Shown in pieces: positions 4,746-28,953 of a stretch of DNA of 29,192 bases. Numbering within the stretch: position 1 is the first letter of the stretch; each line of letters opens with the position of its first letter. This DNA is from a virus. Lineage: Duplodnaviria > Caudoviricetes. Made by a program: the position numbers and the translations under genes. The DNA lies in the IMG/VR virus record IMGVR_UViG_3300020045_002701, positions 1 to 29,192 of that record. One strand, 5' to 3'. The notes under the pieces were generated by a model that made no database searches, was not told the DNA's origin, and was given only the letters and a program-made list of their open reading frames with translations.

Positions 4746-4987
4746 TAGTCGTCATACCCCTCATCAACATTGTTCACCATATTTGTACAGAATTGTTGTA
4801 GACGGAAGACATCATAAACAATATCTCGTCGATCAGTGGAGTTGGTCCCTACAGCTACAGTGCCATCTTTTCGTTCTACAATGAACACAGCTCGGACAGC
4901 TTCATCTTTCAGACTGTCGATAAAAGCCATATAGTTCTCATCGTCTTCGTCTAGGGAGCCTAGTTGGATAATTTTAGCTTCAGTCAT
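4745..4987 (-). CDS. Hypothetical protein
   Basis: ATGA and TAATG coupling with its neighbours. Confidence 0.75.
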   Translation of the reverse strand: MTEAKIIQLGSLDEDDENYMAFIDSLKDEAVRAVFIVERKDGTVAVGTNSTDRRDIVYDVFRLQQFCTNMVNNVDEGYDD

Positions 4988-9559: not shown

Positions 9560-10212
9560 GCTTGCAACCCTTTCCAAGCTGTAACCATGTGAACAGCAAT
9601 AGGCCCACCAGCTACATCTTTATCAAACTCAGCAATGTAGATGATATTGTGGTAGTAGGCACCAGTGTCAAGATTGCAACGATGCTTTCCCACAAATGGC
9701 ACCTTCTGAGGAGTGTGACCATGCACTACATAACGATTAAAGATTGGGTAGTCATCACCACTACCAAACCTACTCCATTGTGTTACTTCTGGGTGTTGAT
9801 GTGCCAATGGCTTTTTGTCACTAATAGCCGCATGGACAAAAATACGATGATCGTCCCAAATGTAACGGGGGAGTTTTTTACAAAACTCAATATATTTTGT
9901 AGGGGGGTAGGTGTCTTTAAAAGATTGTAGGGCTTTATCTCCTCCATTATCCACCCACATACTATAGGCATGTTTATTATCTCGTGCTTCAAGCATCATG
10001 TCTTCGTGATTACCACGAATGATAGTCCATTTCCATCCTTCAGGAGGACCAGCCATTAGCTTGTCCAACACCCCTTTGCTATCTGGACCACGATCAATGT
10101 AGTCGCCAGTGAAGATGATCTCCCCACTGGCTTCTTTTGCTTCGACAGCTTCAATAGCTTTATTTAGGATGTTTAGGTTTCCGTGAATATCAGCTATTAC
10201 AAACTGTTTCAT
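9556..10212 (-). CDS. Calcineurin-like metallophosphoesterase (Ser/Thr protein phosphatase-like)
   Basis: DIHG, GDYIDRG, RGNHE, FVHA, HGHTP and LDTG motifs. Confidence 0.92.
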   Translation of the reverse strand: MKQFVIADIHGNLNILNKAIEAVEAKEASGEIIFTGDYIDRGPDSKGVLDKLMAGPPEGWKWTIIRGNHEDMMLEARDNKHAYSMWVDNGGDKALQSFKDTYPPTKYIEFCKKLPRYIWDDHRIFVHAAISDKKPLAHQHPEVTQWSRFGSGDDYPIFNRYVVHGHTPQKVPFVGKHRCNLDTGAYYHNIIYIAEFDKDVAGGPIAVHMVTAWKGLQA

Positions 10213-10913
10213 TACCAAGCTTCCTCATCTACGTCAGGAACATCTTTCAAGGCCTCGTCAGCGACCTTTACAGGGGCCTTCTCCTTTTTCTTGGTGGTAG
10301 GTGCCCCAGAAGCAAGAGCAGCCTCTAGAGGGCTTCCCTCGAAGTCTACGGCCCCCTTAGCTTCTTCTTGCAGCCAATCAGGCAACGAGTTGAACACCTC
10401 CATGTCAGGAGAATAGAAGTCGAAGATTTTTCCTTCGTTAACCAGAGGAGGGGCTTTAGCTGCCTCTTTAGGACGCATAGCAGAGACGGCTGCTACATTA
10501 TTATAAATCTTCCCTTTGCTTTCAGATTGTACCAACGTCACCATACAAGGACTGCCAAGAAGCTGTGCCCAATCACCACCATATTGGCTGTCAGCGTCAA
10601 GAGCATAATAACGCTTAGTGCTCTTAGCCAAATCTGCTTTAAGGGGGAAGAAGGGGAGGTCTTCACTAATCCACCGAGGCTTTTCAGGAATGTCGTTATC
10701 ATCCTCATCTTTCATAAACTCGTCCAACATCTCATACGTCAGACGAATTTTAAGGGAGGGGGCTTTCTCCTCACCTTTGTAAGGACGATTTTTCTGAACC
10801 CCCATCAGAAGGATTTGTACCAGACGTGCTGGATACGAACCAGCATCGAGAGGAGGGATTGGTTTAGCATTTGAGGTGCTAGGGAGTTTAGATGCGTTCA
10901 GGCCATTTGCCAT
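10212..10913 (-). CDS. Putative single-stranded DNA-binding protein
   Basis: Located beside the polymerase; OB-like core (AGSYPARLVQI...LLGSPCMV...YNNV) and an acidic tail ending in an aromatic residue (DVPDVDEEAW). Confidence 0.65.
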   Translation of the reverse strand: MANGLNASKLPSTSNAKPIPPLDAGSYPARLVQILLMGVQKNRPYKGEEKAPSLKIRLTYEMLDEFMKDEDDNDIPEKPRWISEDLPFFPLKADLAKSTKRYYALDADSQYGGDWAQLLGSPCMVTLVQSESKGKIYNNVAAVSAMRPKEAAKAPPLVNEGKIFDFYSPDMEVFNSLPDWLQEEAKGAVDFEGSPLEAALASGAPTTKKKEKAPVKVADEALKDVPDVDEEAW

Positions 10914-13506: not shown

Positions 13507-13692
13507 TTATTCCTCTTTCATTAACGAGTAGACATCAATCTCTCGTGCAATTTCTAGAATTGTCAGGTCATCATAAGAACGATCAGGACGATGAGAGTTT
13601 TCTCTAACCCAAGACTTAACATCCTCTAAAGTAGACACCCATTCATAGTGAGTTCCTTCATAAGGTACATTCCACTCAATCTTAAAGCTCAT
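13507..13692 (-). CDS. Hypothetical protein, paralog of 14221-14403
   Basis: AAGGA SD; shared PYE...T.E[DE]VK...EIDV..[LF]M pattern. Confidence 0.75.
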   Translation of the reverse strand: MSFKIEWNVPYEGTHYEWVSTLEDVKSWVRENSHRPDRSYDDLTILEIAREIDVYSLMKEE

Positions 13693-13987: not shown

Positions 13988-14221
13988 TTACATATGATCA
14001 GCCAAATTAGTTTTTAGTGGGGCGAAGGTGAGGTGCCTTTGGTCAAAATAGTTTTTTACCGTCTCTAGACTATTAGACTTACAATGTCGGAAATAGCTTT
14101 CATCTTGATAACACGACATTGTATCCCCCAACCACAGGAATTTAGGCCTCTTAAACCAACCCCCTCTCACTTGAATACCAAAACTACCATCACTAAATTT
14201 TACAATACGTTCTTTAAACAT
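13988..14221 (-). CDS. Small protein with C-terminal motif variant (NLADHM)
   Basis: TAATG coupling; ends PLKTNLADHM*. Confidence 0.75.
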   Translation of the reverse strand: MFKERIVKFSDGSFGIQVRGGWFKRPKFLWLGDTMSCYQDESYFRHCKSNSLETVKNYFDQRHLTFAPLKTNLADHM

Positions 14222-14403
14222 TAATCTTTCTCCATAAATTCATTGACATCAATCTCTTGCACCACTTCGTACAAGGTGAAATATTGACTTTGAAAGCCCC
14301 AACCTGCTTTAGCTTTTCTTAGGTAGGCTTTTACCTCTTCTTCGGTGTCAAACTCCGATACGACACAATTTTCATAGGGACGAAATTCAGACAGGATGTA
14401 CAT
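14221..14403 (-). CDS. Hypothetical protein, paralog of 13507-13692
   Basis: Internal ATG at 14403 (MYILSEFRPYE...) gives a 60-aa protein that aligns end to end with 13507-13692. Confidence 0.65.
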   Translation of the reverse strand: MYILSEFRPYENCVVSEFDTEEEVKAYLRKAKAGWGFQSQYFTLYEVVQEIDVNEFMEKD

Positions 14404-14565
14404 ATTCTTCACACCCTTTGCTGAAATCTGAAAAGGCAATTGGTGGCTTGCCGGGAAGGTCTTTCCACCAACGTTAAGCTCCCTCTGTTCCTGAGAGAAA
14501 TTACGAAAGCACTTTGTATTAGTGCAATCTGATGCACAGAAGGTTTGGTCTTTAAAGCACATCAC
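14387..14565 (-). pseudogene. Cys-rich small protein, probably frameshifted near 14475
   Basis: MMCFKDQTFCASDCTNTKCFRNF... continues plausibly in another frame as RWWKDLPGKPPIAFSDFSKGCEEYVHPV* (14473-14387). Confidence 0.5.
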
Positions 14566-17015: not shown

Positions 17016-17261
17016 TTACATATAATCTTCTAAGTCTACTTCTTCTTCCCTACAAGGGACAAAGTATTTAATTTTGGTACAAGCTTCACATTTCCCATCT
17101 AAAGACTTAAATGTCGCTACCTCTTTGTCCCATGAAGAAACGTTAGAGAGTACCCAAACAGCCTTGTCCCAATCAATATTGTGCCTATTAAAGTAGTCCT
17201 CATGGGACTGCCTATTAACCTCCCCGCACAGGGACATCATAAACTTATACTTTACAACCAT
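17016..17261 (-). CDS. Small tagged protein (ends DLEDYM), family A
   Basis: AAGGAG SD; C-terminal motif; similar to 17252-17491. Confidence 0.8.
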   Translation of the reverse strand: MVVKYKFMMSLCGEVNRQSHEDYFNRHNIDWDKAVWVLSNVSSWDKEVATFKSLDGKCEACTKIKYFVPCREEEVDLEDYM

Positions 17262-17491
17262 TCTGACAGCTCCTTTGTTGGAACAACGAGGTGGAAATAG
17301 GACATCTGTGTATATAACTCTCTACCTGTTTTCTCGTCTTTGACAAAAACTTGGAAGGAGTTTTTATATTTCACATCTGCAACCCAGACCACATTTTTCC
17401 AATCTACTCCATAGTCTTTAAACCACTCAAGATAAATCTCTTTTGTATAGTTGTCTTCTATAAGGTCGATATCAAATTTTAATCTAAGCAT
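17252..17491 (-). CDS. Small tagged protein (ends ELSEWL), family A
   Basis: GGGAG SD; C-terminal motif. Confidence 0.8.
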   Translation of the reverse strand: MLRLKFDIDLIEDNYTKEIYLEWFKDYGVDWKNVVWVADVKYKNSFQVFVKDEKTGRELYTQMSYFHLVVPTKELSEWL

Positions 17492-17494
17492 GTC

Positions 17495-17764
17495 TCACTC
17501 CCAATGTTCTAAAGGTTTAGGATTTAAAAATGCCAACTCTGAGCTATCTACAGCAACAGAGGGATCACCAAAAAAGTCTGAGGGGGTTGCAAGAACAATT
17601 TCAAAAGGGAAATTTGTCCCATCTTGTACAACCCTCTTAATTACAACAAGTTGGTTTGTGTTTTTCTCGCCTCTTCTCCAATCCCCTAGATAAATATCTG
17701 TGGACAAAACCCCCAGAAAAATAAGCTGATCCCCCACTTTAGGAATGTGGTCTCCAATGCTCAT
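17495..17764 (-). CDS. Small tagged protein (ends KPLEHWE), SH3/KOW-like, paralog of 18754-18999
   Basis: IGDHIPKVGD...ELAFLNP. Confidence 0.8.
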   Translation of the reverse strand: MSIGDHIPKVGDQLIFLGVLSTDIYLGDWRRGEKNTNQLVVIKRVVQDGTNFPFEIVLATPSDFFGDPSVAVDSSELAFLNPKPLEHWE

Positions 17765-17765
17765 A

Positions 17766-18023
17766 TTACATCCACTCCTCTAAATTTGTTTTAGTTTCCA
17801 ACTTAGTCAAATCATCCCTACGAAGTAGAAAATCTAACCTAAGTTTGTCCTCATCATAAACCTTAATCCCAACCCTGTTTTCAAAAGATGGCTCATTATA
17901 CCTCTGAGGGTCTTTAACCTCAAACACTGTGTCAAACGACACACCCACCGCTGGGAGCCACTTTTCGTATTGGGCATAACGTCCATTTCTTACCACCTTA
18001 TTGATATCAATTTTTACGAGCAT
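17766..18023 (-). CDS. Small tagged protein (ends NLEEWM), family A
   Basis: C-terminal motif; Y..WL..VG pattern. Confidence 0.8.
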   Translation of the reverse strand: MLVKIDINKVVRNGRYAQYEKWLPAVGVSFDTVFEVKDPQRYNEPSFENRVGIKVYDEDKLRLDFLLRRDDLTKLETKTNLEEWM

Positions 18024-18024
18024 G

Positions 18025-18270
18025 TCACATCCAGTCTTCTAACGGTTTAGCTGACAATGGGAGTAGCACTTTTCTGTACCAATTGTATGTTTTGTCCTCA
18101 ACACCTGCAATCACTGTGCCCCCATTAAACCCCCCAGAATCAACTAGAGTTTGATTTCTTCCCAGTGTGAGGATAACATCAGGAGTCCAACCAACACTAC
18201 TCAGCCAGTGTAGGTAAGCTTTTTCTTCATGAGCCTCCTTAATCACATCCCAATTAATTATCACTCGCAT
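18025..18270 (-). CDS. Small tagged protein (ends KPLEDWM), family A
   Basis: TAATG coupling; C-terminal motif. Confidence 0.8.
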   Translation of the reverse strand: MRVIINWDVIKEAHEEKAYLHWLSSVGWTPDVILTLGRNQTLVDSGGFNGGTVIAGVEDKTYNWYRKVLLPLSAKPLEDWM

Positions 18271-18545
18271 TACATGTAATCCTCTAGGTTAACTGGTGTA
18301 GAAATAACGGGCCTCAGTTCACTTTCATGCATACGATAATGCCAACTTCCTCGCTGTTTTCCATTGTCTTTTACCATTATGCAGGTGTACACACCTTCTT
18401 CTGGCCCCCAGCGGTTTTCATGTCCGGGAACATGACGGATAACTTTATAAAGACGTTTCTCTCCGTCTCTAAAAGCCCTGTACTGAGCTTCCCACCCAAA
18501 ATAATTATCCGCCACCACTTCTACAAGTGTTCCATTTGGAAACAT
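18270..18545 (-). CDS. Small tagged protein (ends NLEDYM), SH3-like
   Basis: Start MFPNGTLVEV at 18545 (TGATG overlap); ends ...HESELRPV and then the motif. Confidence 0.8.
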   Translation of the reverse strand: MFPNGTLVEVVADNYFGWEAQYRAFRDGEKRLYKVIRHVPGHENRWGPEEGVYTCIMVKDNGKQRGSWHYRMHESELRPVISTPVNLEDYM

Positions 18546-18757
18546 CACATCCAATCCTCTAGTGATTTAACTTCTACACCCCGTTCAAAGAACTCCTCTA
18601 ACCAAACTCCACCCACCTCTTTAAATACAACTTCTGGGGAGTTATAGGTTAACACAGTTACGGGTTGATTAGGGAGAATCCAAGCTTTTTTACAATAGGT
18701 GGTCCAACCCCCATCTTCATACCTTTTCCCCCTAAACCATTTTTCACCAACTTTCAC
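18545..18757 (-). CDS. Small tagged protein (ends SLEDWM), SH3-like
   Basis: GTG start overlapping the upstream stop; MKVGEK. Confidence 0.8.
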   Translation of the reverse strand: MKVGEKWFRGKRYEDGGWTTYCKKAWILPNQPVTVLTYNSPEVVFKEVGGVWLEEFFERGVEVKSLEDWM

Positions 18758-18999
18758 ATCCAGTCTCCTAAATCAGATACAGAGGGTTTGAGGAAGGCCA
18801 GCTCTGTTGCACGTAGATTATATCCGTATTCTGGTTTTCCTTCAAACAGCCCAATCACTTGATAACAAAAATCTCCTTGACTGTAGACACGTTGAATGGT
18901 GACAATCTTGCCATTGTGGATAGACCCACTTTTTTCTGCAAAATTTACCACCCTAAATCTCTCTCCTACTTTAGGTGTGTAGTCTCCAATATGGTCCAT
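18754..18999 (-). CDS. Small tagged protein (ends DLGDWM), SH3/KOW-like
   Basis: IGDYTPKVGERFRVV...ELAFLKP. Confidence 0.8.
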   Translation of the reverse strand: MDHIGDYTPKVGERFRVVNFAEKSGSIHNGKIVTIQRVYSQGDFCYQVIGLFEGKPEYGYNLRATELAFLKPSVSDLGDWM

Positions 19000-19012
19000 A
19001 ATAATCCCTTTG

Positions 19013-19855
19013 TCAAGATGCGAAGAGAGATTTATTTTTATTGAAGATGTTCAGGTCAATCTCAGACCAGTTACGAGAGTAGAGGGCGTACTGGATATTA
19101 CGAATACCCGTGCGGATACGGTCTTCCGTAACAAAAGGACGAAATACTTGATAGGAACTACCAAGAGCCGTCTTAGCAAACTCCGTGAAACCAAGAGCAG
19201 AAGCTTCCCCAAGGATGTCTGTGGGGCAGGAGATGGTCTTGGCAAACTCCTTAAGTTGGTTCAGAACAGCAGCCCACTGCTTGATCTTATTAAAATCAAT
19301 AGTAGACTCAAGGGCACGAAACTCAACAGAACCATACTTAAACAAGCTGGTGATGTTCAAGCTTGCATAACGCAAATCTTCTGTGTTCAACGACTGAAGA
19401 TCGGAGTTGGCAATGGCTTCACTGATCATGTCCAATGTATAAGAGGCATCAGACATACGGAGACAGAAGTGGTTCCCGCTACGAGTTTTATCGCAATATG
19501 ATAGGAGAACTTCCTCAAACATAAAATACACAGCAAGGAAAGTCATTAGCTGCTTTGGTGTGAGGTCTTGGACATTAACATGAACATGGATACCAGCGCG
19601 ATAGGTTGGTTTCACATTCGTGTTGTGAGAGGTGAGAGCTTTACTAAGCTCCCCAAAAGCCTTGTCAAGGTCTGCAATAGGGAGGGGCTTACGGAGGACA
19701 AATTCCCCACTCTCTCCCCGAAGGGATGGGTCTCTCTCAAGACGCCAATGTTTGCAAACTGACTCTGCGCTAGGCATACCATCAGCTTCCATTTCAATTT
19801 CTACACCTACATCCCCAATTTGCGGGGAACAAGGGATAATATCTACGATTCTCAT
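19013..19855 (-). CDS. Putative amidoligase (COOH-NH2 ligase, glutamine synthetase/GCS fold)
   Basis: GVEIEME, DPSLR...EFV, AGIHVHVN, RYASLN and GSVEFR motifs. Confidence 0.88.
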   Translation of the reverse strand: MRIVDIIPCSPQIGDVGVEIEMEADGMPSAESVCKHWRLERDPSLRGESGEFVLRKPLPIADLDKAFGELSKALTSHNTNVKPTYRAGIHVHVNVQDLTPKQLMTFLAVYFMFEEVLLSYCDKTRSGNHFCLRMSDASYTLDMISEAIANSDLQSLNTEDLRYASLNITSLFKYGSVEFRALESTIDFNKIKQWAAVLNQLKEFAKTISCPTDILGEASALGFTEFAKTALGSSYQVFRPFVTEDRIRTGIRNIQYALYSRNWSEIDLNIFNKNKSLFAS

Positions 19856-20421
19856 GCGGCCTCCATAGCGGATGTAAGGTGTTGTTCAAGGAAGAATTTG
19901 TCTGGGGACAGAACAGGAACGTCTTTGATAATTCTTCCTACAGTGTATTTTCGATAGATCAGCAACAACTCACCAGTTTTGTCACTTACCCCAAAATCAC
20001 GAGAGAAGGCCATAGACCTATTTCTCGTTTTCTTGTTGTAAGTCAAAGCTTCTTGATAACTGGGGAACTTATTAAGAATGGTGTGCGTCAAAGAAGAGAG
20101 GTTAAAATCTCGTTTATCCGCACCATACAACACAAGGCTATTGGTTGACAACCCTTGTCTCCAATCCTTCCTCATAGGTTTTCTACATGCAAAAACCATT
20201 TTTCCCCCAATATTGAAAAACCCTAGTGGGACAGGGGTGAGGTCAAGATCATCCAAAGCAATCTCAGATGCTTCCATTGTCACCTGATCCACACCAAGAC
20301 AAAACACTCGCCCACCACTTTTAGATGTTGAGTGGACATAGAAAGGATTGCCATTGGCTTTCCTAATCAATGTCATGTCAAGTCTTTTAGCAGCATATTC
20401 AAGGTTATCGTTATACATCAA
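19852..20421 (-). CDS. Hypothetical protein in the ligase cluster
   Basis: 189-aa ORF with an AGGAG SD, lying between the two ligases. Confidence 0.8.
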   Translation of the reverse strand: MMYNDNLEYAAKRLDMTLIRKANGNPFYVHSTSKSGGRVFCLGVDQVTMEASEIALDDLDLTPVPLGFFNIGGKMVFACRKPMRKDWRQGLSTNSLVLYGADKRDFNLSSLTHTILNKFPSYQEALTYNKKTRNRSMAFSRDFGVSDKTGELLLIYRKYTVGRIIKDVPVLSPDKFFLEQHLTSAMEAA

Positions 20422-20428
20422 TGTCTCC

Positions 20429-21310
20429 TTAAAACTCAGCTGGGTCTTTTTTCTTTTTCGTCTCTGGGGCTGGGATCAAATTCTCACGATAGAACTTGGG
20501 GGATTTAACACCACCATACTCAAACAAGTAGGAGAGGACATCTTTCCACCCCTCTTGTTTGTTGATCACTTGTTGAGCCGTCAAACCGTAGTGATTTTTC
20601 TCACCAATAGTAGGGTCGTCAAACGTAGCTTTGATAGCGTCAATAGTGTTGTGATAAACCAAGGAACGAAGGATAGGGTTGTTGATCCACTTATTGCTAA
20701 GGACTCGGTATTCCATACCATAAGGTTTGGGACGGAATGCCCCTGCGGCCCCGTACAAGCCTCGCCGACGTTCATCTTGGTCCCAGACAAGGGAGGGTAC
20801 ACCAAGGTATAGGTCAAGGCTCTTGGTGAGCGTTCTACAAGCCTCTAGATGGCCCGGATCATTGATATCAACACCACTGGTCCAACCAACATGGACATGA
20901 CCAGAGGCTGTACGGAAAGGAGTGTTCTCGTTAGGACGAGGATTGGCCTCTCTCGTATAAGCGTTGTAGTCAGGAGAGCAACCAAGCTCACCAGCTTCTT
21001 TGGGTTGAGACTTGATATAGTCCAAGCCAAAATCTGCCACAGGCTCAATGAACAACTCATAACCGGGGACCATCTTTGTAATTTCCTCAAAGACAGTGGA
21101 CATATTCTCCTCAAACTGAGAATACGAATCAGCGGGGTCAATATTAAACTCCAAAGCCATACCGTCAACTTGGACAGCCCCTTTGTCCACCTTAAAGGGA
21201 TTTTCTTTCGATCCGGGGATTAGGCCATGTGCAGACCACAGTTTCCCGAAACGCTTAACGAAAAATTCCGGGTCAGCACCAATTTTAATATCGTAGCCAT
21301 TGACTTTCAT
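20429..21310 (-). CDS. phiEco32-like COOH-NH2 ligase type 2
   Basis: IGADPEFF, DGMALEFN, GCSPDYNAY, RTASGHVHVG and RRGLYGAAGAFRPKPYGMEYRVLSN motifs. Confidence 0.92.
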   Translation of the reverse strand: MKVNGYDIKIGADPEFFVKRFGKLWSAHGLIPGSKENPFKVDKGAVQVDGMALEFNIDPADSYSQFEENMSTVFEEITKMVPGYELFIEPVADFGLDYIKSQPKEAGELGCSPDYNAYTREANPRPNENTPFRTASGHVHVGWTSGVDINDPGHLEACRTLTKSLDLYLGVPSLVWDQDERRRGLYGAAGAFRPKPYGMEYRVLSNKWINNPILRSLVYHNTIDAIKATFDDPTIGEKNHYGLTAQQVINKQEGWKDVLSYLFEYGGVKSPKFYRENLIPAPETKKKKDPAEF

Positions 21311-21313
21311 TCT

Positions 21314-22693
21314 TCAGTTTCCTTGTTTTTTGGTGTAGGTTTCAACATAAGGCAGTAGACGGCAAGCGCCACAATAGAAGGTGGTTTTATCTGCCCACAA
21401 CAGGTCTTCTCTTTCTCCCCACTCAACGGAGATACCACAGCAGTCACAACCTTTTTGCGTGTGTTCTTTGAAGGCTTCAACATTAAGACGAATTTTTGGA
21501 TCAAACCAAGGAGCAGATTGAGACTCTGCCCCCTTAATAATAGAAAATCCGCCCTCTTTCTTCAGCTGAATCCTGACATCAGGGAGCAGCGTGACAAATT
21601 TCAAATCAGACCAGTTGCACCAATAATCTTCTTTTTGTTGCAACACATTTTTGAAAAGCTTAGGGGCCACATAGAAGCCATTACCTTTGGGTGTGACAAG
21701 CTTGTCTTTCGCCTCTAGATACTTACTTTGAGGGATAACAATCCTCACTGACGACCCATCCATAGTCGTACCAAAAGCTGTAGGTCTGTTTGGGATGTTA
21801 TGAAACTCTGTGATGATCAACTGACTAGCAGTTTTCTGCACAGGTTTCTTTGTTTGTGGTTGTTGTTGATTATTTTGAGAGGGGGGAGTCCAACCCTCCC
21901 AACCATCGTAATAATTTCCACCTCGGCTTTGCCCGTAATTGTAAGAGGCTTTCCACTTTTCGACGAAAGGGGGGACCGGGGTTTCCGTGTGAAATACCTC
22001 CTTTGCGTCATTGAGCTGGAAAGTGTAGAGCTGATCTGGCTTACACTCCATAATGTCGTGTCGATTAATACCATTCCTACTCATACCTACAGCAAGCATC
22101 CAAGATTCTGAAGCCCAAAACACTTGCTTGTTGTCTTTGCTGTAGCAAAAGAACAAGGGACGTTGAATATTACGAATAAGGTTAAGCTGCTTTCGTTGTT
22201 TGTCATACCATGATAGGGCTAAAGCCCCATCAGCGTCTTTCCAAACTTCTTTCACATCTTGGGTATGAGACAGATGGCTATAGATAATTTGAGAGTCAAT
22301 CTCAAAGTCTTTATACCCAGCAAAGTCTTTCATAGACCATTTATTGACAGTGCCATTATGTGCCCCAACAGCATTATCAAACTCAAATGGGTGAGCATTG
22401 GCAGAGGTGACAGCCCCTTGTGTGGCATAGCGATTATGCCCAATGAAGATGTCTACAGGTTTTGCTGTAAGCGAACGTCCCTTTTTCCAAAGATTGTGCT
22501 CCCAGAAGAACTCTGAAGCTCCACCAAGGCTCTTAAACAGTTCAATTTCAGTTTTACCGTCATACGCATTTGAGATGGCAGCTACACCAGTGGAGTCTTC
22601 TCCACGAAGAACGTCAAGATAAAGAAGGTCGTAAAAGACTTTCTTAGCATTTTCCGGGAGGGCTTCCCCGATTACCCCTACAAGGCCACAAAT
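21314..22693 (-). CDS. Class II (Ntn) glutamine amidotransferase with C-terminal extension; ATT start
   Basis: Frame extends 120 codons upstream of the listed ATG to ATT-TGT-GGC-CTT-GTA-GGG (xCGLVG). It includes RGEDSTG, GHNRYAT, NAHPF, HNGT and DSQ. An AAGGAG SD lies 7 nt upstream. Confidence 0.9.
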   Translation of the reverse strand: MCGLVGVIGEALPENAKKVFYDLLYLDVLRGEDSTGVAAISNAYDGKTEIELFKSLGGASEFFWEHNLWKKGRSLTAKPVDIFIGHNRYATQGAVTSANAHPFEFDNAVGAHNGTVNKWSMKDFAGYKDFEIDSQIIYSHLSHTQDVKEVWKDADGALALSWYDKQRKQLNLIRNIQRPLFFCYSKDNKQVFWASESWMLAVGMSRNGINRHDIMECKPDQLYTFQLNDAKEVFHTETPVPPFVEKWKASYNYGQSRGGNYYDGWEGWTPPSQNNQQQPQTKKPVQKTASQLIITEFHNIPNRPTAFGTTMDGSSVRIVIPQSKYLEAKDKLVTPKGNGFYVAPKLFKNVLQQKEDYWCNWSDLKFVTLLPDVRIQLKKEGGFSIIKGAESQSAPWFDPKIRLNVEAFKEHTQKGCDCCGISVEWGEREDLLWADKTTFYCGACRLLPYVETYTKKQGN

Positions 22694-22704
22694 AGCGAAG
22701 CTCC

Positions 22705-23325
22705 TTACAGATTAAAGAAGGTTTGAATGTATCCGAAATACGTTGTCTGACAATCGTGGTCAATATCAACATACTCTGGATGAGGTTGATAACACAAACT
22801 ATTGGTGTTTGCGTAGAACACAGCCTCAATGTCTGGATTTGTACCTCCCACCTCTTGCACTTCCCAACCTTGCTTGAAAGTTGAGCAATCAGCAGTTAGG
22901 AGGACAATTGCGTCAGTGGAAGGGATCATCATTTGGTGATGTGTAGAAGTCACCATAATCTCTTCCCCAGTCATTTGGTCAAGAGCTGTGTGAACCCCAC
23001 GGAGAGCATGGCCTGTTACATGTTGCCACATTTTCCCCCCATTCATAACGTTTAGGAATTGTGCTCCACGACAGATACCAGCCATAGGTACTCGTCCATT
23101 AAACTCTAGATAAATCTCTGCTTCTCGTGCATCCCTGTTTGGGTTAGAAAAGGTGGCAGGGTGAGCTTTCTCTCCGTAGTAAGAGGGGGTTACATCTTCC
23201 CCTCCCGTGAATTGGACAAGAGAAATGTTGTCGTCCAACGCATTGTGCGTAACCTCCCAACCGTTCATAGCAAACATCTGGGAAATCTGGCTGTCTAGCC
23301 CAACAATCAGCACTTTATTCCGCAT
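22705..23325 (-). CDS. Class I glutamine amidotransferase-like / peptidase C26 (gamma-glutamyl-gamma-aminobutyrate hydrolase family)
   Basis: TGGEDV.P..YG, RD..E, GICRGAQ, STHHQ and QPHPE motifs. Confidence 0.92.
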   Translation of the reverse strand: MRNKVLIVGLDSQISQMFAMNGWEVTHNALDDNISLVQFTGGEDVTPSYYGEKAHPATFSNPNRDAREAEIYLEFNGRVPMAGICRGAQFLNVMNGGKMWQHVTGHALRGVHTALDQMTGEEIMVTSTHHQMMIPSTDAIVLLTADCSTFKQGWEVQEVGGTNPDIEAVFYANTNSLCYQPHPEYVDIDHDCQTTYFGYIQTFFNL

Positions 23326-24193
23326 TTAGAATCCTCTCCAAGATTTGCTCAAGAACGTTTTTAAAGCCTTCTTCAGTGGTGTACTCCCAACCATCTGTCT
23401 TAATCTTTTCAAAGATGTTAAGATTTTTCTTACTCTGACTGTCTTTTGGACGGACAGTCTTGATCCACCGCATAAAGGCATCAGTGGAAGCAACAGAAGG
23501 AGTTTTCCAAACAGCATTTACATCAACATCATAACCCTTGTAATCTCTTAGGGTAATGTTTTGTAGATTTTTTGGCGTGCCAAGGAGGAAGTTTCTGTAA
23601 TAGGACTCAGCTTGCCCCCCTAGATGGAAGATGCCATGTCCTGCAACCAAGTCTGTAAAAACTACAGAGTAGCGAGATGTGTTGGATTTAACGAAAAGGT
23701 AGGAGAGAATAAGGGCTTCTTCTTCCTTAAAACCCAAACTCAAGATATGTAGATAAGTGGCAAACCTGTTTGCAATGGAGGGGGTGTAGCTTTCACTGAA
23801 AGCCCTAGTGGCAATAAGCGCACTAGCAACGAAGTTTGCAGGAAAGTTGGCATCTACCACCCAACCAAGGGAAAGAACGGCGTCTGCGTCTTTCTCAACG
23901 TGCATTGCCGACCAAGGACTTCTATTCACCATCCAATCAATATATGGTTTTACCTCCTTTTCTGTGTACTTGTGGTCTTGCACAGACGACAAAATGTATT
24001 TGATAGGAAGCTTCACGCCTTTATCAAACAACTGGTATTTTTGCAGAGCACCGTGACAAGGGCCATCCCCCAATTTTTTGTAGGTTAGTTCTCCTCCATC
24101 TTCTAACACCAACCCTACAAAAGCATTACGTGCTGGAAAAGATTCTGCTTGTCCAGCAAAACAACCCCTAATATCTTTAATATTCTCTAACAT
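23315..24193 (-). CDS. Hypothetical protein in the ligase cluster
   Basis: 292-aa ORF with a GAGGTG SD; no family recognised. Confidence 0.8.
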   Translation of the reverse strand: MLENIKDIRGCFAGQAESFPARNAFVGLVLEDGGELTYKKLGDGPCHGALQKYQLFDKGVKLPIKYILSSVQDHKYTEKEVKPYIDWMVNRSPWSAMHVEKDADAVLSLGWVVDANFPANFVASALIATRAFSESYTPSIANRFATYLHILSLGFKEEEALILSYLFVKSNTSRYSVVFTDLVAGHGIFHLGGQAESYYRNFLLGTPKNLQNITLRDYKGYDVDVNAVWKTPSVASTDAFMRWIKTVRPKDSQSKKNLNIFEKIKTDGWEYTTEEGFKNVLEQILERILNAE

Positions 24194-24201
24194 GTATCAC
24201 C

Positions 24202-25068
24202 TCAGACAAGGATTGCATCAGGAGTGAGGGCAGGATGGATGAATTTTTTCCATCCACCACGTTCCTCGGTTACAGGGATAGCAGCTTTGCCGTGCTCAAT
24301 CAAATAGTCGAAACATTTCGACATACACTCTTGACGATAAGGGCTGGTTTGCGAGGGGGCAGAATTGATCTCAATAACATATGGACGACCATCTGCATCA
24401 AGCATCACATCAACAGCGCCAAAATCAAGCCCTGATAGGAGGAAAGCTTCACGGCTAACCCTAACAGCTTTGAGAGGCCACTCTCCCCAATTCACATTGT
24501 CAAAGCGACCTCCACGGGCCACATTCCATGCAACATCTTGGGGATTGCCCGGTGTCTTCTTAGCTACCCAACATACACGGCCCTGTACGAACGTCACACG
24601 GTACTCAGAGACCTTATCAATGAAGGGGCTGGCATACCACCCTGCTCCACATTGCTGCGTTGCTAGGGCCATCTCAGCCTCTGTACGGGCCAAGTGAACA
24701 TTACGTCCTTGGGAATGTGTTGCGGGGCGAACGACAAGAGGAAAATCATACCCTCCGTGAGGTGTATCCTCCCCATCAAAATACGTGAATGGACATAGCG
24801 GGTAGGGTTGATCTGGGTCATCTACGTAATCATCCATCAACACTTGACGGAAGCCAGCCTTATTCCCTACACGATGAATGGCCTCTGCCGTATTAACAAC
24901 ATCACGACAAGGGACATTGCTTGTCGTCCCCCAACGAATGACCATAGTGGTGTCAGCAGGGAAGGGCTTGTCATTGCGAATGACAGCATCAATTTTGCTC
25001 GACATACGAACAATTTCTTTACAGGAAGTGCGCCCAAGTTTCTGGCGACGAAGCATTACAACGGTCAT
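24202..25068 (-). CDS. ATP-grasp peptide ligase (RimK/YheC-D-like)
   Basis: IRWG, FPLVVRP..HSQG, EYRV, WNVARGG, LDFGAVD and VIEINSAP motifs. Confidence 0.9.
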   Translation of the reverse strand: MTVVMLRRQKLGRTSCKEIVRMSSKIDAVIRNDKPFPADTTMVIRWGTTSNVPCRDVVNTAEAIHRVGNKAGFRQVLMDDYVDDPDQPYPLCPFTYFDGEDTPHGGYDFPLVVRPATHSQGRNVHLARTEAEMALATQQCGAGWYASPFIDKVSEYRVTFVQGRVCWVAKKTPGNPQDVAWNVARGGRFDNVNWGEWPLKAVRVSREAFLLSGLDFGAVDVMLDADGRPYVIEINSAPSQTSPYRQECMSKCFDYLIEHGKAAIPVTEERGGWKKFIHPALTPDAILV

Positions 25069-25394
25069 AGATAGTCTCCTAGGTTGATTTCTTTCTGAGG
25101 GGCACGAAGTCTTTTCAAAACTTCCATCACCATACCTGCGCCCAGACTTATCGGCACTCCGTAACTCAAATCGCTATACTCACTAAACCAGTTCCATCTC
25201 CAAGGAACACCTTTTTTACGAATTTCCTCTGCTGCAAAGTCCCAGATAAAAGCCCCACTAATATGGCCGGGATTTGCTAGGAGATTGTTGGCAATTACTG
25301 GTAGTGGGAGGTATTTTCTTTGTGTCCAGAGGGTGTCTTTATAGTAAGCCTCTCTAAGAGCATCAGCTGCTTTATCTAAATCCTCCGGTGACAT
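25065..25394 (-). CDS. Tagged protein (ends NLGDYL), family C
   Basis: Start MSPED at 25394 (TGATG); similar to 25394-25726 and 27607-27924. Confidence 0.8.
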   Translation of the reverse strand: MSPEDLDKAADALREAYYKDTLWTQRKYLPLPVIANNLLANPGHISGAFIWDFAAEEIRKKGVPWRWNWFSEYSDLSYGVPISLGAGMVMEVLKRLRAPQKEINLGDYL

Positions 25395-25726
25395 CACATC
25401 CAATCCTCAAGTGATTTGGCAACAGGGGGGTGGATCATCATTTTAAAGACTTGTTCAAACAACACAGCTCCCAGTCCAAACCCATCTCTATAATCTTTAA
25501 AACGCTCTCTAGAGATATCCACACCATACTCGGACAAGGCTTTTACAGCACCGTCCCAAAATAGTAATATATCTATATTACAACGTGCATCAAGACAACT
25601 TTCTGCCACTTCTTTTGGTGAAAGACCTCTTTGGTAAGACGTTTGGCAACCCCTAAACACATCTGGTCTTAAGAGAAGGTTAGCAATTTTTGGTGCTAAA
25701 GAGATTAACTCAACCCCATTGGGCAT
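25394..25726 (-). CDS. Tagged protein (ends SLEDWM), family C
   Basis: GGGAG SD; aligns with 27607-27924. Confidence 0.8.
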   Translation of the reverse strand: MPNGVELISLAPKIANLLLRPDVFRGCQTSYQRGLSPKEVAESCLDARCNIDILLFWDGAVKALSEYGVDISRERFKDYRDGFGLGAVLFEQVFKMMIHPPVAKSLEDWM

Positions 25727-25995
25727 ATCTGCAAACTCCCTGTTTTTCCTTCGTCAAGTTTTAGTGGTTCTGGTTGCACCCAACCAACAGCAGGAATGAC
25801 GTATAGTGTGTCAGGTTGATCACCATCCCCTTGAACTACGAGGAAAGAGTGACCACCAAGGTTAAATTCAATCTCGGTATCTGCCCAAGCGGTTAGACGA
25901 TTGGTATAAACCACTTCGTCACAAGCTTTGTGTGATAGGACCACCTCTGAATACGAAGAGGGGTAGCCCCATTGATAGTGAAGATCAGCGTCCAT
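25705..25995 (-). CDS. Hypothetical protein
   Basis: Likely start MDADLHY at 25995 with an AAGGA SD. Confidence 0.65.
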   Translation of the reverse strand: MDADLHYQWGYPSSYSEVVLSHKACDEVVYTNRLTAWADTEIEFNLGGHSFLVVQGDGDQPDTLYVIPAVGWVQPEPLKLDEGKTGSLQICPMGLS

Positions 25996-26629
25996 TTTCT
26001 TTTCCTTTGATGATGGCGCGGATTTCTTCTGCATGCCGTCCGAAATGTAAAGGCGTTTCAGCACATTGCGCCCACACTTCCAACTGCGCCACTGTCACCA
26101 CCCGCGTCTGCTCATTTTGAGCTACATCCGCTGCGGGCTGACCAGCTAGATTACGGATCACGTCAACAAGCTGACATTTCAGCGTATCCTTGAAGTTCTG
26201 GCTATCGCAGTATTCCCCCAATGCCCTTGCTGCGTCCGCTAACCCTGCAATGTAACCTTTACCGCTACGCGCTGCGGGCTGTGGAGCGGGGCGGGCGTCG
26301 TGTTGGGCGGGTGTGATGAGGGCGCGGATGCGACGTGCCGCCTCTCCAGTAGCTTCACAGTATCCTTCGGACCAATCATCAGCCCCATCACCTCTGCGCA
26401 TTGGCCGATCATCAGATGTATAGGCAGCGACCTTTGCCGCTGCCTCCAGCGCAGCGGCGACCGAGGCTTGGGACAGGTCGGTGCGGGTGCGGTCGTTCCA
26501 CGTCACTTTCATAATTGGCCCAGATGCGCCGCAGTTTGTGCAATACGGGTATGGCCGAAGCCTCGTAAGTTCGCGGTCAATTCCGTGGCTTCCGCAAAAC
26601 GGGCATGGCAATAATTCAATCGCGCTCAT
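25985..26629 (-). CDS. Protein with N-terminal Lar-like (restriction alleviation) Zn ribbon
   Basis: ELLPCPFCG...YCTNCGASGP...WNDR, followed by Ala-rich segments (AALEAAAKVA, ARRIRAL) typical of temperate-phage early genes; GC-rich. Confidence 0.75.
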   Translation of the reverse strand: MSAIELLPCPFCGSHGIDRELTRLRPYPYCTNCGASGPIMKVTWNDRTRTDLSQASVAAALEAAAKVAAYTSDDRPMRRGDGADDWSEGYCEATGEAARRIRALITPAQHDARPAPQPAARSGKGYIAGLADAARALGEYCDSQNFKDTLKCQLVDVIRNLAGQPAADVAQNEQTRVVTVAQLEVWAQCAETPLHFGRHAEEIRAIIKGKENGR

Positions 26630-27117
26630 GTCTTCGGCTCCTTGTCGGCTGTGGGGGTGAGGGCTTGGCGGGCAGCGATAAGCACCTGATGCGCGTGATA
26701 TTCACCCATATCGACAGGGCTGTGTCCGCAATTCATCGGTTCGCTGTGGCTTTCCATTTCGTCTCCGCAGCAACAAACACCGTCCGCCATGTCTGCATGT
26801 TCAATCGCGGCAACGCATCCGGTCAGCGCCTCGGTCAGCGCCTTCACCCGCCCCACTGCGGCGGCTTCGGATGCCCGCAGCGTGGCGTTCTCGGCGGCGA
26901 GGGTGAGATACGCTGCTTCAATGTCGGGTAGGCGGGCTATGCGGCGGGCATCAATCTCAGGCGCACCAGCATTGTTTGAACCGAAGATGCGGTCCATAGC
27001 GCCCGGCTGACGCACTGTATGGCCGACGCGCGTGTATTCGTACACCCACGGCCCCGGCGTTCCTGCTTCGCGGTCAGCCACCATCTGCGCCACCGCTTCC
27101 GGCGATAATCTAGTCAT
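26626..27117 (-). CDS. GC-rich hypothetical protein of temperate-phage type (Ead/Ea22-like)
   Basis: Start MTRLS at 27117 with a GGAGG SD; TPGPW...DARRIA..PD motif, coiled coil, CCCG...CGH. Confidence 0.7.
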   Translation of the reverse strand: MTRLSPEAVAQMVADREAGTPGPWVYEYTRVGHTVRQPGAMDRIFGSNNAGAPEIDARRIARLPDIEAAYLTLAAENATLRASEAAAVGRVKALTEALTGCVAAIEHADMADGVCCCGDEMESHSEPMNCGHSPVDMGEYHAHQVLIAARQALTPTADKEPKT

Positions 27118-27152
27118 CTCAACCTCCAAAAATATTTATTTTCTCAGACCCC

Positions 27153-27182
27153 TTGACAAGGCCCCAAAACAAACTATATACT
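27153..27182 (+). promoter_or_regulatory. sigma70-like promoter, antisense to the surrounding genes
   Basis: TTGACA (27153-27158), an 18-nt spacer and TATACT (27177-27182), with an AT-rich upstream element, in the largest clear intergenic gap. Confidence 0.55.
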
Positions 27183-27215
27183 ACTAGGGGTTTAATTATT
27201 AAAACTAATTAATAA

Positions 27216-27605
27216 TCATTCTCCCCAGTAATAATACTTATTATTATTATACTCTAATGTACTACAAATACTAAGACGAGAGGGTTGTTCTAGCATCTCG
27301 TAGATGTATGTCTCTACATCATCACCATTCACTGTTGCTTTAATCGTATTACGACGATACCAATCAGGGTGTCCTTCCAGACGATCACAACGAGCAACAT
27401 GATTGTCGTCTACTTCCCAAATTTCCCCTTTGATAGGAAGCATTGGAAACCCATCTCTGTATTTCGTATAAGCAATGGGGAAGCCACCATTAGCGAGAGC
27501 ATAGGATTTGTGTGAGTAAGCGTCTCCAACAAACCTAGCACCTTCAAGCAAACGATTGTTCCCCCAACCACGCTTCAATGTTCCATAAACCATAAGTAGT
27601 TTCAT
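27216..27605 (-). CDS. Gamma-glutamyl cyclotransferase (AIG2-like)
   Basis: VYGTLKRG..N..LL, GEIWEV and DRLEGHPDWYRR motifs. Confidence 0.93.
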   Translation of the reverse strand: MKLLMVYGTLKRGWGNNRLLEGARFVGDAYSHKSYALANGGFPIAYTKYRDGFPMLPIKGEIWEVDDNHVARCDRLEGHPDWYRRNTIKATVNGDDVETYIYEMLEQPSRLSICSTLEYNNNKYYYWGE

Positions 27606-27606
27606 A

Positions 27607-27924
27607 TTACATCCAATCTTCTAGGGGTTTAGTAGTAGGGGGGTTAAGCATAGCCTCAAACATAGCTTCAAAGAACTCGTAATTATACTCATAATCTGAG
27701 TAGGATTCAAAATCCTCCTCGTCAATCTCTATCCCATACTCTTGAAACAACTTAGCACACTCTCTCCATTCAAAAAGGTTTGAGAAAGTGTCTGTTGGGT
27801 CTTCCCGGTAATAGCTTAAGAAAACTTCCACCCCAAGCTCATCGTTGTCAAACCTAACCTGCTCAAAGTTACCGGGAGTTAACAGGATCATACCTGCTGT
27901 AATCCCTTCTGATCTTGTCACCAT
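27607..27924 (-). CDS. Tagged protein (ends KPLEDWM), family C
   Basis: Start MVTRSE at 27924 (TAATG); acidic. Confidence 0.8.
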   Translation of the reverse strand: MVTRSEGITAGMILLTPGNFEQVRFDNDELGVEVFLSYYREDPTDTFSNLFEWRECAKLFQEYGIEIDEEDFESYSDYEYNYEFFEAMFEAMLNPPTTKPLEDWM

Positions 27925-28142
27925 TACAACCAATCCTCAAGAGGTTTTGGTTTGGAGAGGACCAGATCAAAATAGGTTGTAGTCCAAGTAAATTCCACTT
28001 CTTCTAACGTGATAATGCTACCAGAAATCGTCTTAATCGTCACAACCTCGTCAACACCACGTAATCCTTTTCTACAAAAGGTTTTCCACAACCCCTCTTG
28101 GTCAATGAGTTTACGTCTAATTAAACTCCCTACAACAAACAT
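27924..28142 (-). CDS. Small tagged protein (ends KPLEDWL), SH3-like
   Basis: AGGAG SD; FVVGSLIRRK. Confidence 0.8.
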   Translation of the reverse strand: MFVVGSLIRRKLIDQEGLWKTFCRKGLRGVDEVVTIKTISGSIITLEEVEFTWTTTYFDLVLSKPKPLEDWL

Positions 28143-28151
28143 AGTTTTCTC

Positions 28152-28379
28152 CTACATATATGATGATAGGTCAATACCCTCAGAAGAGATGTATGGTTCA
28201 AAACATTTAGCTGCAAAAAGCTTTGTGCTTCCTACGAGCCAGAGTTCTACTAGGTTTTGATGGTCAACCACAAACACTGCATCAGCGGATGTCTCTATGG
28301 GCCTGTATCTCCCCCAAAAAGGGTCTTTTTGCGCCTCAACCTTCCTACGAACTTTTTGACCTCTGCTAAATGTTGTCAT
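28152..28379 (-). CDS. Small tagged protein (ends DLSSYM), SH3-like
   Basis: FSRGQKVRRK; motif variant. Confidence 0.8.
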   Translation of the reverse strand: MTTFSRGQKVRRKVEAQKDPFWGRYRPIETSADAVFVVDHQNLVELWLVGSTKLFAAKCFEPYISSEGIDLSSYM

Positions 28380-28465
28380 TTTCCCTTGCCTTTTTCAGCC
28401 TGCTTCTTCATCGCCTCTACAGCGTAGTCCCCCAATCACGAAATGCCATCTGCTTTTCCTTCCCG

Positions 28466-28699
28466 TTAAAGCCAATCAGTTAGCGGTTTTGGTTTAGGTC
28501 TTGAGATAAGAACAAAGCAGTTGTGGTCAAACCCACAACTAATCTCTTTAAATCTCAATACCCCCATATAGTTTTTAACTACTGTTAGAGGGCTGTTAGG
28601 AGAAATCTCTCCTGTCTTACAAGCATACAACCATGCAGGAGAATCCTGATATGTTTTGTGTCGCCTGACGACAGCTCCGGGTTGCATATCTTTTGTCAT
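28466..28699 (-). CDS. Small tagged protein (ends KPLTDWL), SH3-like
   Basis: MQPGAVVRRH; ATGA coupling. Confidence 0.8.
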   Translation of the reverse strand: MTKDMQPGAVVRRHKTYQDSPAWLYACKTGEISPNSPLTVVKNYMGVLRFKEISCGFDHNCFVLISRPKPKPLTDWL

Positions 28700-28953
28700 A
28701 ACCAGTCCTCTAGAGGCTTAGCCTCCACAGCAAAGTCAAACCATTTGGCTCTCCAAGCCCCCCTACCAATTAGGTGTCCTTGGTAGGTAACATGGACCTC
28801 ACAGTTCACCGACTCTTCTGCCAGAAGTCTAGTAATAGTAACAGCGGTATGTGGACTTACTCCTAAATCCTTCATGTATTCACACCAATGATTCCAACCA
28901 TAGCCGCTGTCTGGCTTACGGACAATCAAATCCCCAATTTTAAACTCTGCCAT
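28696..28953 (-). CDS. Small tagged protein (ends KPLEDWL), SH3-like
   Basis: GGAGG SD; FKIGDLIVRK. Confidence 0.8.
   Translation of the reverse strand: MAEFKIGDLIVRKPDSGYGWNHWCEYMKDLGVSPHTAVTITRLLAEESVNCEVHVTYQGHLIGRGAWRAKWFDFAVEAKPLEDWL

Follow-up and report, generated by a model that had tools for sequence, protein, structure and literature searches.

A tagged array of small proteins around a phage amidoligase cluster and its predicted docking on a COOH-NH2 ligase

Why would a phage surround a set of amide-forming enzymes with many small genes that differ in their bodies, but share one ending? The question is raised by a stretch of 29,192 nucleotides from a Zobellviridae-like phage (IMG/VR record IMGVR_UViG_3300020045_002701), here called the window. 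A first-pass annotation had proposed that the common tag attaches all the small proteins to one and the same phage enzyme, and that each binds a different host target through a variable domain. We have followed up this proposal by sequence comparison and structure prediction.

The tagged genes and the enzyme cluster

Sixteen small genes of the window share the C-terminal ending x-L-[ED]-[DE]-[WY]-[ML]-stop, 15 of them strictly and one in a degenerate form. The strict pattern, [LIM][EGADTSN][DES][WYFH][MLAI]-stop, is matched by 15 of 181 open reading frames of at least 45 residues, all on the coding strand, versus a mean of 0.04 and a maximum of 1 in 200 base shuffles of the window, so that the common tag is borne out. 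The tags end in W, Y or H followed by M or L, with a single WE. All tagged and cluster genes lie on the minus strand, where they had first been placed, and 15 of the 16 tagged genes flank an amidoligase cluster of the phiEco32/PA11 type. Along the transcript, five tagged genes come first, four of them SH3-like members of family A4 (28696..28953, KPLEDWL; 28466..28699, KPLTDWL; 28152..28379, IDLSSYM; 27924..28142, KPLEDWL) and one of family A3 (27607..27933, KPLEDWM), followed by a gamma-glutamyl cyclotransferase (GGCT; PF06094; 27216..27605) and two further A3 genes (25394..25726, KSLEDWM; 25065..25403, INLGDYL). The latter, in which only the tag resembles the SH3 profile, overlaps by ATGA the start of a RimK/TTL-like ATP-grasp ligase (24202..25068). 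Next come the conserved protein gp23315 (phrog_34254; 23315..24193), a class I glutamine amidotransferase (GATase)/peptidase C26 (22705..23325), a class II (Ntn) GATase of 459 residues (21314..22693), the phiEco32-type COOH-NH2 ligase of 293 residues that is the predicted tag reader (20429..21310), the conserved protein gp19852 (phrog_11055; 19852..20421) and the amidoligase of 280 residues (19013..19855). Eight tagged genes follow: 18754..18999 (SDLGDWM), 18545..18757 (KSLEDWM; SH3-like, A4), 18270..18554 (VNLEDYM), 18025..18270 (KPLEDWM; A2), 17766..18023 (TNLEEWM; A2, weakly matched by an SH3-like profile without the tag columns, E 0.007), the degenerate 17495..17764 (KPLEHWE; with an SH3-like N-terminal signature), 17252..17491 (KELSEWL; A2) and 17016..17261 (VDLEDYM; A2). 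After them lie the primase, which has its own ribosome-binding site, the sigma factor and one tagged outlier (13988..14221, TNLADHM). Some tagged genes are 5-8 kb from the nearest cluster enzyme, and a GC-rich untagged insert (25705-27129; 59% GC in 26001-27000) separates the GGCT from the 25065/25394 pair. The proposed placement of eight tagged genes downstream of the amidoligase, two upstream of the ATP-grasp gene and five upstream of the GGCT is therefore accurate; of the claim that they surround or interleave the cluster, the flanking stands, but zero tagged genes lie inside the seven-gene core in this window.

A Pfam search bears out the enzyme names. The COOH-NH2 ligase (PF14395, 35 bits, cut-off 25) and the amidoligase (Amidoligase_2, PF12224, 48.4 bits, cut-off 22) share one operon with an ATP-grasp ligase, a class II GATase with an N-terminal Cys, a class I GATase and a GGCT. 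We corrected the start of the class II GATase from 22333 to an ATT codon at 22693, followed by CGLVG; its PHROG match is strong (E 2.7e-36), and its Pfam match fell just under the cut-off because the truncated reading frame was scanned. For gp19852, an N-terminal Tudor/SH3-like barrel is predicted (Z 6.0, rmsd 2.0 Å over 53 residues), and an Atlas search with gp23315 gave matches below thresholds.

Many bodies of the small proteins are diverged SH3/Tudor-like paralogues, and three are helical; the domains called variable are indeed varied, but not all unrelated. Folded alone, the 28696-28953 protein forms an SH3-like barrel (pLDDT 80.6). The family A4 model is a five-stranded small barrel (Z 6.6, rmsd 2.5 Å over 58 residues versus KOW6-7), an assignment of fold class only because many rows of the structure comparison are tied. 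The Atlas search with the 27924 protein gave matches below thresholds, and word-index searches for homologues gave few. Short homologues carry a tag in 81 of 120 cases, longer fusion proteins in 0 of 34, and homologous bodies bear different tags in different lineages. Paralogues number 10-19 per genome and turn over fast, the sets differing even between phages with 76-77% identical primase.

Arrays and clusters in other phages

Tagged arrays also occur in CVT22, Klyazma, Pecta, T2S1, CW02, phiM6 and in metagenomic loci, and those of related phages often have one tagged gene inserted between successive enzymes. The tag is particular to each lineage, all classes being rich in Glu/Asp. The terminal residue is nearly uniform within a phage (E in 16+2 of 19 in CVT22, K in 12/12 in Klyazma, D in 16/17 in Pecta), and it differs among three enterobacterial phages, while being uniform within each. 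Together with synonymously varying codons, this uniformity points to a phage-specific reader. In two of the loci, L138 and L112, a tail that varies from 0 to 5 residues comes after the motif; the tags of phiM6 and L204 are long, that of L204 reading PxQQGDKDEDI. The cluster is shared by phiM6 even though its structural genes resemble HMO-2011 (PMC6256558).

The amidoligase cassette was found in 319 GenBank phage records. As to the expected association of arrays with it, no array without a cluster was found, every array found adjoining one, but the cluster is mostly tagless (84/100 loci and 13/22 named cluster-bearing genomes), and obligate co-occurrence is rejected on that account. The array counts are lower bounds, since a first 3-of-6 motif scan missed L112, which a similarity scan found. 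Other scans added little: a single-tag DNA scan gave 0 matches, a tandem-tag scan one match and no array, a YKxEDFL scan 12 stretches with neither array nor cluster marker, and a metagenome scan one 2.4-kb contig. An A5 profile had 0 matches in 18 GenBank records although four of these carry arrays, and is thus lineage-limited. Tag-like endings of cluster enzymes themselves, such as LEENMY in Ab22 and KPLENNP in G003, are not systematic across 21-22 genomes; a Pecta exonuclease ends in PILENE.

Predicted docking on the ligase

We modeled a four-chain complex of the 28696-28953 protein, the COOH-NH2 ligase, the amidoligase and gp19852, that is, one tagged protein with 3 of 8 cluster proteins. 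In the predicted complex, the tag docks in a C-terminal groove of the COOH-NH2 ligase with a score of 0.62 (0.65, 0.56 and 0.62), while the best of three controls scored 0.00; with the ligase replaced, the score is 0.00. Of 157 solved complexes 116 attain the score mark, as do 2 of 215 mismatched pairs, counts that hold only roughly here. At least 97% of contacts are common to the runs, with a partner pLDDT of at least 79. In the model, residues L81, D83, W84 and L85 of the tagged protein lie against ligase residues 174-178 and 254-275, with K272 and R275 adjoining the acidic and the terminal residue of the tag; residue 241 also belongs to the predicted reading site. All confident contacts in this model were with the COOH-NH2 ligase. 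The amidoligase and gp19852 had none, a result that does not argue against their binding the tag; of the three candidate partners modeled, the prediction points to the 20429 protein. A sequence search with the ligase profile found no solved structure up to E 1.

Across 117 ligases, K272 and R275 occur together in exactly seven, those of the window and of L107, L108, L109, L111, L117 and L188. The tags of these seven phages all end in an acidic-aromatic-hydrophobic triplet, and none of the 97 untagged ligases combines the two residues. L112, nested between L188 and the clade of the window, has a different tag and neither K272 nor R275; the correlation is confounded by descent and comes down to this one independent contrast. 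In phiM6 and L204 the ligase stops short of the predicted groove although both phages have long tags, so the docking site is not universal. With the modeled complex, the co-variation at K272/R275 and the interleaved arrays of several lineages, the proposed docking on a shared phage enzyme acquires a named, predicted partner, and we consider it likely that the tag docks on the COOH-NH2 ligase.

What the tagged proteins may do

The reading that we prefer, and to which we assign a probability of about one half, is that the shared tag docks on the ligase and the bodies act as exchangeable recruitment modules. The tag would occupy the groove in the C-terminal part of the enzyme, and the varied SH3/Tudor-like or other bodies would bind targets, bringing the amide-forming cluster to different substrates or sites, where it would add or remove glutamyl or amide groups. 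Host defense proteins are one candidate target, and the small proteins may accordingly be adaptors that aim the ligase at host proteins. More tentatively, the whole could be a modular protein-modification machine, in which 10-19 fast-evolving SH3-like adaptors, plugged into the carboxylate-amine ligase through a phage-private peptide code, would select the host proteins, such as defense systems, that are to be glutamylated, amidated or joined by an isopeptide bond.

Alternatively, the tag may dock and the small proteins themselves be substrates or modifiers, the carboxylates of their tags receiving amide or glutamyl groups or being joined to lysines of other proteins. The ligase, amidoligase and RimK-like ATP-grasp families act on carboxylates, the tags of all classes offer Glu and Asp, and contact residues 174-178 lie shortly before the invariant R182/R183. 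The likeness to pupylation by PafA lies in a ligase of the carboxylate-amine kind alongside small acidic-tailed proteins. Pup, however, is a single disordered modifier ending in GGE/Q, while the window has many proteins that end in M or L rather than E or Q; a C-terminal GG-Glu/Gln is absent from all 16 tags, and the one member folded is an ordered barrel. Since the complex model has no confident tag contact with the invariant E15, E54, H138, H140, R182, E200 and R202, and since the tags of L138 and L112 stop short of the C-terminus, we regard this Pup-like alternative, also raised in the first-pass annotation, as unlikely.

Equally improbable, in our view, is that the tag is read outside the cluster, whether by a host protein (clamp, protease or other) or by the primase-helicase or capsid of the phage. 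Sliding-clamp tails (PIP box, T4 gp45 clients) place an L-x-x-aromatic-hydrophobic helical plug at the C-terminus, and the tag resembles such LxxFF-type tails in pattern; phage SSB ends in EEAW or GEDW; and arrays also flank primase and sigma. A sigma70-like promoter candidate (TTGACA-17-CATATT, a consensus match; 18988..19016, minus strand) overlaps the amidoligase stop and would group the eight-gene tagged block with the primase; TTGACA stands at this place in 7 of 8 loci compared. However, the tags that other lineages carry at corresponding gene positions are unrelated, and these complete differences, like the one uniform residue that distinguishes the three enterobacterial phages, fit a conserved host reader poorly. 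Neither in the window nor in the 98% complete genome G001 is the tag found on polymerase, primase, sigma or exonucleases, and the complex model selects the ligase. T4 internal proteins are hypervariable small genes sharing a terminal capsid-targeting sequence. The tag of the window is instead C-terminal and tracks the ligase cluster. In G001, where structural genes were recognized by position and size only, the strict pattern has 14 matches, each of them a small gene of the early arm; the large genes, among them the candidates for capsid and scaffold, all lack the tag, and capsid targeting is rejected.

Slightly less probable still is that the small proteins, once docked, activate or inhibit the ligase or tether it to nucleic acid, to RNA polymerase or to the ribosome, as regulators or localizers that select no targets. 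In fold, A4 resembles the KOW, Tudor and NusG domains, of which many are binders of nucleic acid or of large machines, and other phages carry this SH3-like domain in fusions with DUF3310/gp1.7-like nucleotide kinases, but so many fast-turnover paralogues per genome exceed the needs of simple regulation.

Finally, the tag DNA often doubles as the ribosome-binding site of the next gene. It is Shine-Dalgarno-like: GAG makes up 20 of the 25 Glu codons at -4 (background 52%) and 18/18 in CVT22. Overlapping junctions have GAG, and tags followed by a gene with a separate ribosome-binding site have GAA/GAC. Both E-to-G changes in tags create AGGAG, as in 18754..18999, LDDYL-stop overlaps the MTTFK of the next gene, and the GP100 amidoligase ends in PLEDY at such a junction. 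One phage group has runs of two to three LENK/LENN endings with no cluster marker in the stretch examined. That the tag is just a by-product of such translational coupling, homogenized by recombination and without protein function, is nevertheless very unlikely, given that the amino-acid pattern persists at uncoupled junctions, that all genic TGGAGAAYG sites in CVT22 (16/16) are read in the LENE frame, that synonymous variation is in excess in L204 (p 2.7e-6; all four Gly codons, no fixed Shine-Dalgarno), phiM6 (p 9e-4) and the position-defined CVT22 set (p 0.006), though not significantly in the window (p 0.12), G001 (0.11) or G002 (0.07), and that docking on the ligase is predicted. We thus reject coupling as the sole cause and keep it as a second role of the tag, one that accounts for the way in which genes can be inserted in the operon.

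The recruitment reading brings to mind the F-box, SOCS-box and BTB adaptors of cullin-RING ligases, in which a short shared docking motif serves variable interaction domains on one ligase. The window likewise has one motif on many otherwise different proteins, in an analogy of how things may work and not of descent: the enzyme is a carboxylate-amine ligase, the putative docking motif has 5-15 residues and is lineage-specific, and a Pfam scan of 32 window proteins found no cullin, RING, E2 or ubiquitin components.

In its enzymes, the cluster equals the phiEco32/PA11/LUZ24-type cassette (Iyer et al. 2009, as cited in later papers; Hardies et al.). Proposed roles of such cassettes are peptidoglycan modification or a block to superinfection (PMC6256558, PMC10580990) and the metabolism of gamma-glutamyl amide linkages (PMC4819975). 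Tagged small genes go unmentioned in the available parts of that literature, and the literature searched contained no description of such arrays. An array predicted to dock on the ligase of the cassette points to protein-directed, not only cell-wall, chemistry. The cassette so far has only an untested cell-wall hypothesis in the portions consulted. Now that a docking partner and an interface are named, it can be tested directly, with the tagged proteins as baits for substrates, and array-bearing phages are in culture (CVT22, CW02, phiM6). If the small proteins are adaptors, phages would have a new route to diversify host manipulation with the enzyme unchanged, each body reporting a host target; the logic would parallel that of cullin-RING adaptors, but in a virus of prokaryotes. 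Because tag and groove change together between lineages, they would form an orthogonal lock-and-key set.

Tagged gene arrays around the ligase cluster and their lineage-specific spelling

The C-terminal tag reads x-L-[ED]-[DE]-[WY]-[ML]-stop, and a strict search pattern for it fits the ends of 15 of the 181 open reading frames of the window, every one on the coding strand, against a chance level of 0.04 in 200 shuffles of the window; a sixteenth gene (17495) carries a degenerate tag. The window comes from a Zobellviridae-like podovirus and represents its early and replication arm; the primase-helicase shares 52-53% identity with its counterparts in PA11, TC6 and KZY1. Pfam and PHROG confirmed the identities of the amidoligase, COOH-NH2 ligase, class II and class I GATases, ATP-grasp protein and GGCT, and two further cluster genes, gp19852 and gp23315, are conserved and unnamed. 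Peptidoglycan modification has been proposed for a seven-ORF module (PMC6256558). The first-pass annotation had the tagged genes surrounding or interleaving this cluster; the layout it described holds, except that in the window none lies inside the seven-gene core and all flank it. At the amidoligase stop lies a promoter-like site, shared by seven of eight loci, which suggests that the eight-gene tagged block is also transcribed with the primase.

The tagged block is interrupted by an untagged, GC-rich insert (25705-27129, 59%) that carries a Lar-like restriction-alleviation gene (PF14354, 25985-26629); the IMG/VR relatives G001 and G002 have other, GC-rich-looking inserts downstream of sigma. 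Two untagged small genes share a second ending, EIDVNEFMEKD (14221-14565, which resembles two fused reading frames when compared with G001 and G002) and EIDVYSLMKEE (13507-13692). The SSB-like protein (10212-10913) ends in EEAW, with GEDW in G001 and G002, EGDW in KZY1, and PW, PF or PY in most relatives. The class II GATase start (22691-22693, minus strand; near 4369 in locus L001) is ATT in the window and G002, TTG in L111 and L117, and ATG in L109, and a weak start codon may limit expression of this enzyme. A short motif common to the amidoligase tail (DLNIFNK, 19013-19855) and gp23315 (NLNIFEK, 23315-24193), with counterparts NLNIFRG/DHHIFRK in G002 and SHNIFRN/HIFRK in G001, is possibly a second docking motif within the cluster.

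The window's tag recurs in G002 (10 genes) and in G001 (98% complete), where all 14 strict matches are small early-arm genes, and a fold match to three CVT22 proteins provided the route to phages in culture. A sample of 25 genomes or records, which is no gauge of association, included 21 GenBank entries hand-picked from ligase and primase match lists; nine of the 25 have both array and cluster, 13 have only the cluster, and three have neither. The nine are the window, G001, G002, CVT22 (tag LENE, 19 genes), Klyazma (LENK, 12), Pecta (LEND, 15), T2S1 (MENE, 10), CW02 (LEENV, 11) and phiM6 (YKxDQEPLEEEETL-like, 13); in CVT22, Klyazma, Pecta, T2S1 and CW02, most enzyme pairs are separated by tagged genes. 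At 100 ligase-anchored loci (the best 80 of 269 from IMG/VR plus 20 MAG contigs, some of them fragments and three repeating genomes of the named sample), a common tail occurs on at least five small genes in 12 and on three in 4, while 84, fragments included, have no small genes with a common tail; the antisense control gave 0 of 100. Further tags at such loci are SLEEYM, KxDWL, LMEEYL, FxxEEEML, TDEEYEELLV and PxQQGDKDEDI.

The tagged state requires six changes (three forced) on the ligase tree, in which L205 is scored as untagged despite an L204-like tag, and four on the primase tree. On this 2.5-kb fragment, sister to L204, the gene at 1253 ends in PTQAGDTEDDI, a variant of the L204 tag. Cluster-independent DNA scans, insensitive enough to miss L109, L111 and L117, detected arrays on 2 of 11 contigs in one pass and on 4 of 13 in another, each with the cluster, and the remaining contigs had 0-2 tag-like endings and no cluster marker within the stretch examined. 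In a large AT-rich phage group (L210, L222), runs of two to three genes end in MENN, LENK or LENN, with no cluster marker in the stretch examined. The early region of untagged phages can hold small paralogue arrays of other kinds, with three MxALFLES-type genes in GP100 (4489-5392) and three W..Y.P endings in L165.

Overlap of the tag with ribosome-binding sites

Tag DNA often supplies the ribosome-binding site (RBS) of the next gene. The Glu codon at -4 is GAG in 20 of 25 cases versus a 52% background (p 0.008), and across 39 junctions, judged by eye, an overlapping or abutting next start goes with GAG and a separate RBS mostly with GAA or GAC. The tag residues are kept even at those of the 39 junctions that have a separate RBS, and all 16 TGGAGAAYG sites within CVT22 genes lie in the tag reading frame. 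L204 (p 2.7e-6), Pecta, phiM6, Klyazma, CVT22, T2S1, L117, CW02 and L188 show an excess of synonymous tag variants, which falls short of significance in the window (0.12), G001 (0.11) and G002 (0.07), the sets having been picked by position for the window and CVT22 and by motif for all others. We read the tag DNA as dual coding, for a protein tag and an RBS. Some large proteins have tag-like ends (GP100 amidoligase PLEDY, Ab22 amidoligase LEENMY, G003 ATP-grasp KPLENNP, Pecta exonuclease PILENE), which are either by-products of RBS overlap or true tags.

A predicted partner of the tag and the bodies that carry it

In a four-chain prediction (gp19852, amidoligase, COOH-NH2 ligase and the tagged protein 28696-28953), the complex scored 0.62 versus 0.00 for the best of three controls, which supports binding at the level of a model; of 157 solved complexes 116 attained the mark, as did 2 of 215 mismatched pairs, a calibration only rough for this prediction. 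Contacts agreed between runs to at least 97% (partner pLDDT at least 79), and the confident ones involve solely the COOH-NH2 ligase (residues 174-178, 241 and 254-275), L81, D83, W84 and L85 of the tag lying closest; replacing this ligase dropped the score to 0.00. The ligase profile matched no PDB chain, making a pass through memorised structures less probable; likeness at fold level may exist.

When contact residues were checked against 117 ligases after modelling, W176, F263, K272 and R275 were invariant in the six ligases of the LED type, the tag type of the window. The K272/R275 pair occurs only in these six and in L188, whose tag ends in DWL, and in none of 97 untagged ligases, L205 again being counted as untagged. 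L112, placed on the tree between L188 and the LED clade, carries a different tag and does not have the pair. The co-variation amounts to one independent contrast, the rest being shared descent. The earlier proposal of docking on a common phage enzyme gains a candidate in the COOH-NH2 ligase. In phiM6 and L204 the ligase stops short of the contact segment, which counts against a general site. We put the probability that the tag docks on the COOH-NH2 ligase at about 0.65.

Five window genes form one family by alignment, with a predicted SH3/KOW/Tudor-like barrel (pLDDT 80.6; Z 6.6 and rmsd 2.5 Å for 58 residues, with many tied matches). A second family can be aligned to it along 48 columns, tag included (95% probability), and a third (25065, 25394, 27607) has the tag alone in common with the others. 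A profile search with the SH3-like family gave 164 relatives, the best 150 of which were listed; in a tally of 154 proteins the tag ends 81 of 120 short relatives, a share biased upward by tag columns in the profile, versus none of 34 long ones, among which are fusions resembling DUF3310/gp1.7-type nucleotide kinases. With tags removed, the bodies are homologous across lineages and carry different tags in each, indicating that which tag a protein bears depends on its genome rather than on its domain family. The SH3-like array gene 60990-61196 of G001 is untagged, and its tag was likely lost recently, a close homologue (P0111) ending in KDLEDYM. In L138 and L188 some bodies and tags look duplicated within the genome, and their identical tails (ELMEEYLCSK, KPINKEDWL) point to recent copying. 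The N-terminus of gp19852 is likewise a Tudor-like barrel in the predicted structure (pLDDT 95.7; Z 6.0), and, speculatively, may give untagged clusters an integral module that belongs to the fold class of the tagged bodies.

Standing of the adaptor model

The tag would dock on the COOH-NH2 ligase clear of the invariant catalytic residues of that enzyme, and the bodies would recruit substrates or sites for glutamyl or amide chemistry. The complete adaptor model, with host proteins as targets, we consider less likely than not. F-box proteins, Pup, PIP and T4 internal proteins are the systems with which the tagged arrays were compared. In the open literature searched, apart from supplements and the subscription papers about CW02, RIO-1 and phiEco32, no description of the tags came up (PMC6256558, PMC3890496, PMC7824862, PMC9960094, PMC4819975, PMC10580990). 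The architecture is real and, within that literature, undescribed, and it is attached to a known but unsolved cassette.
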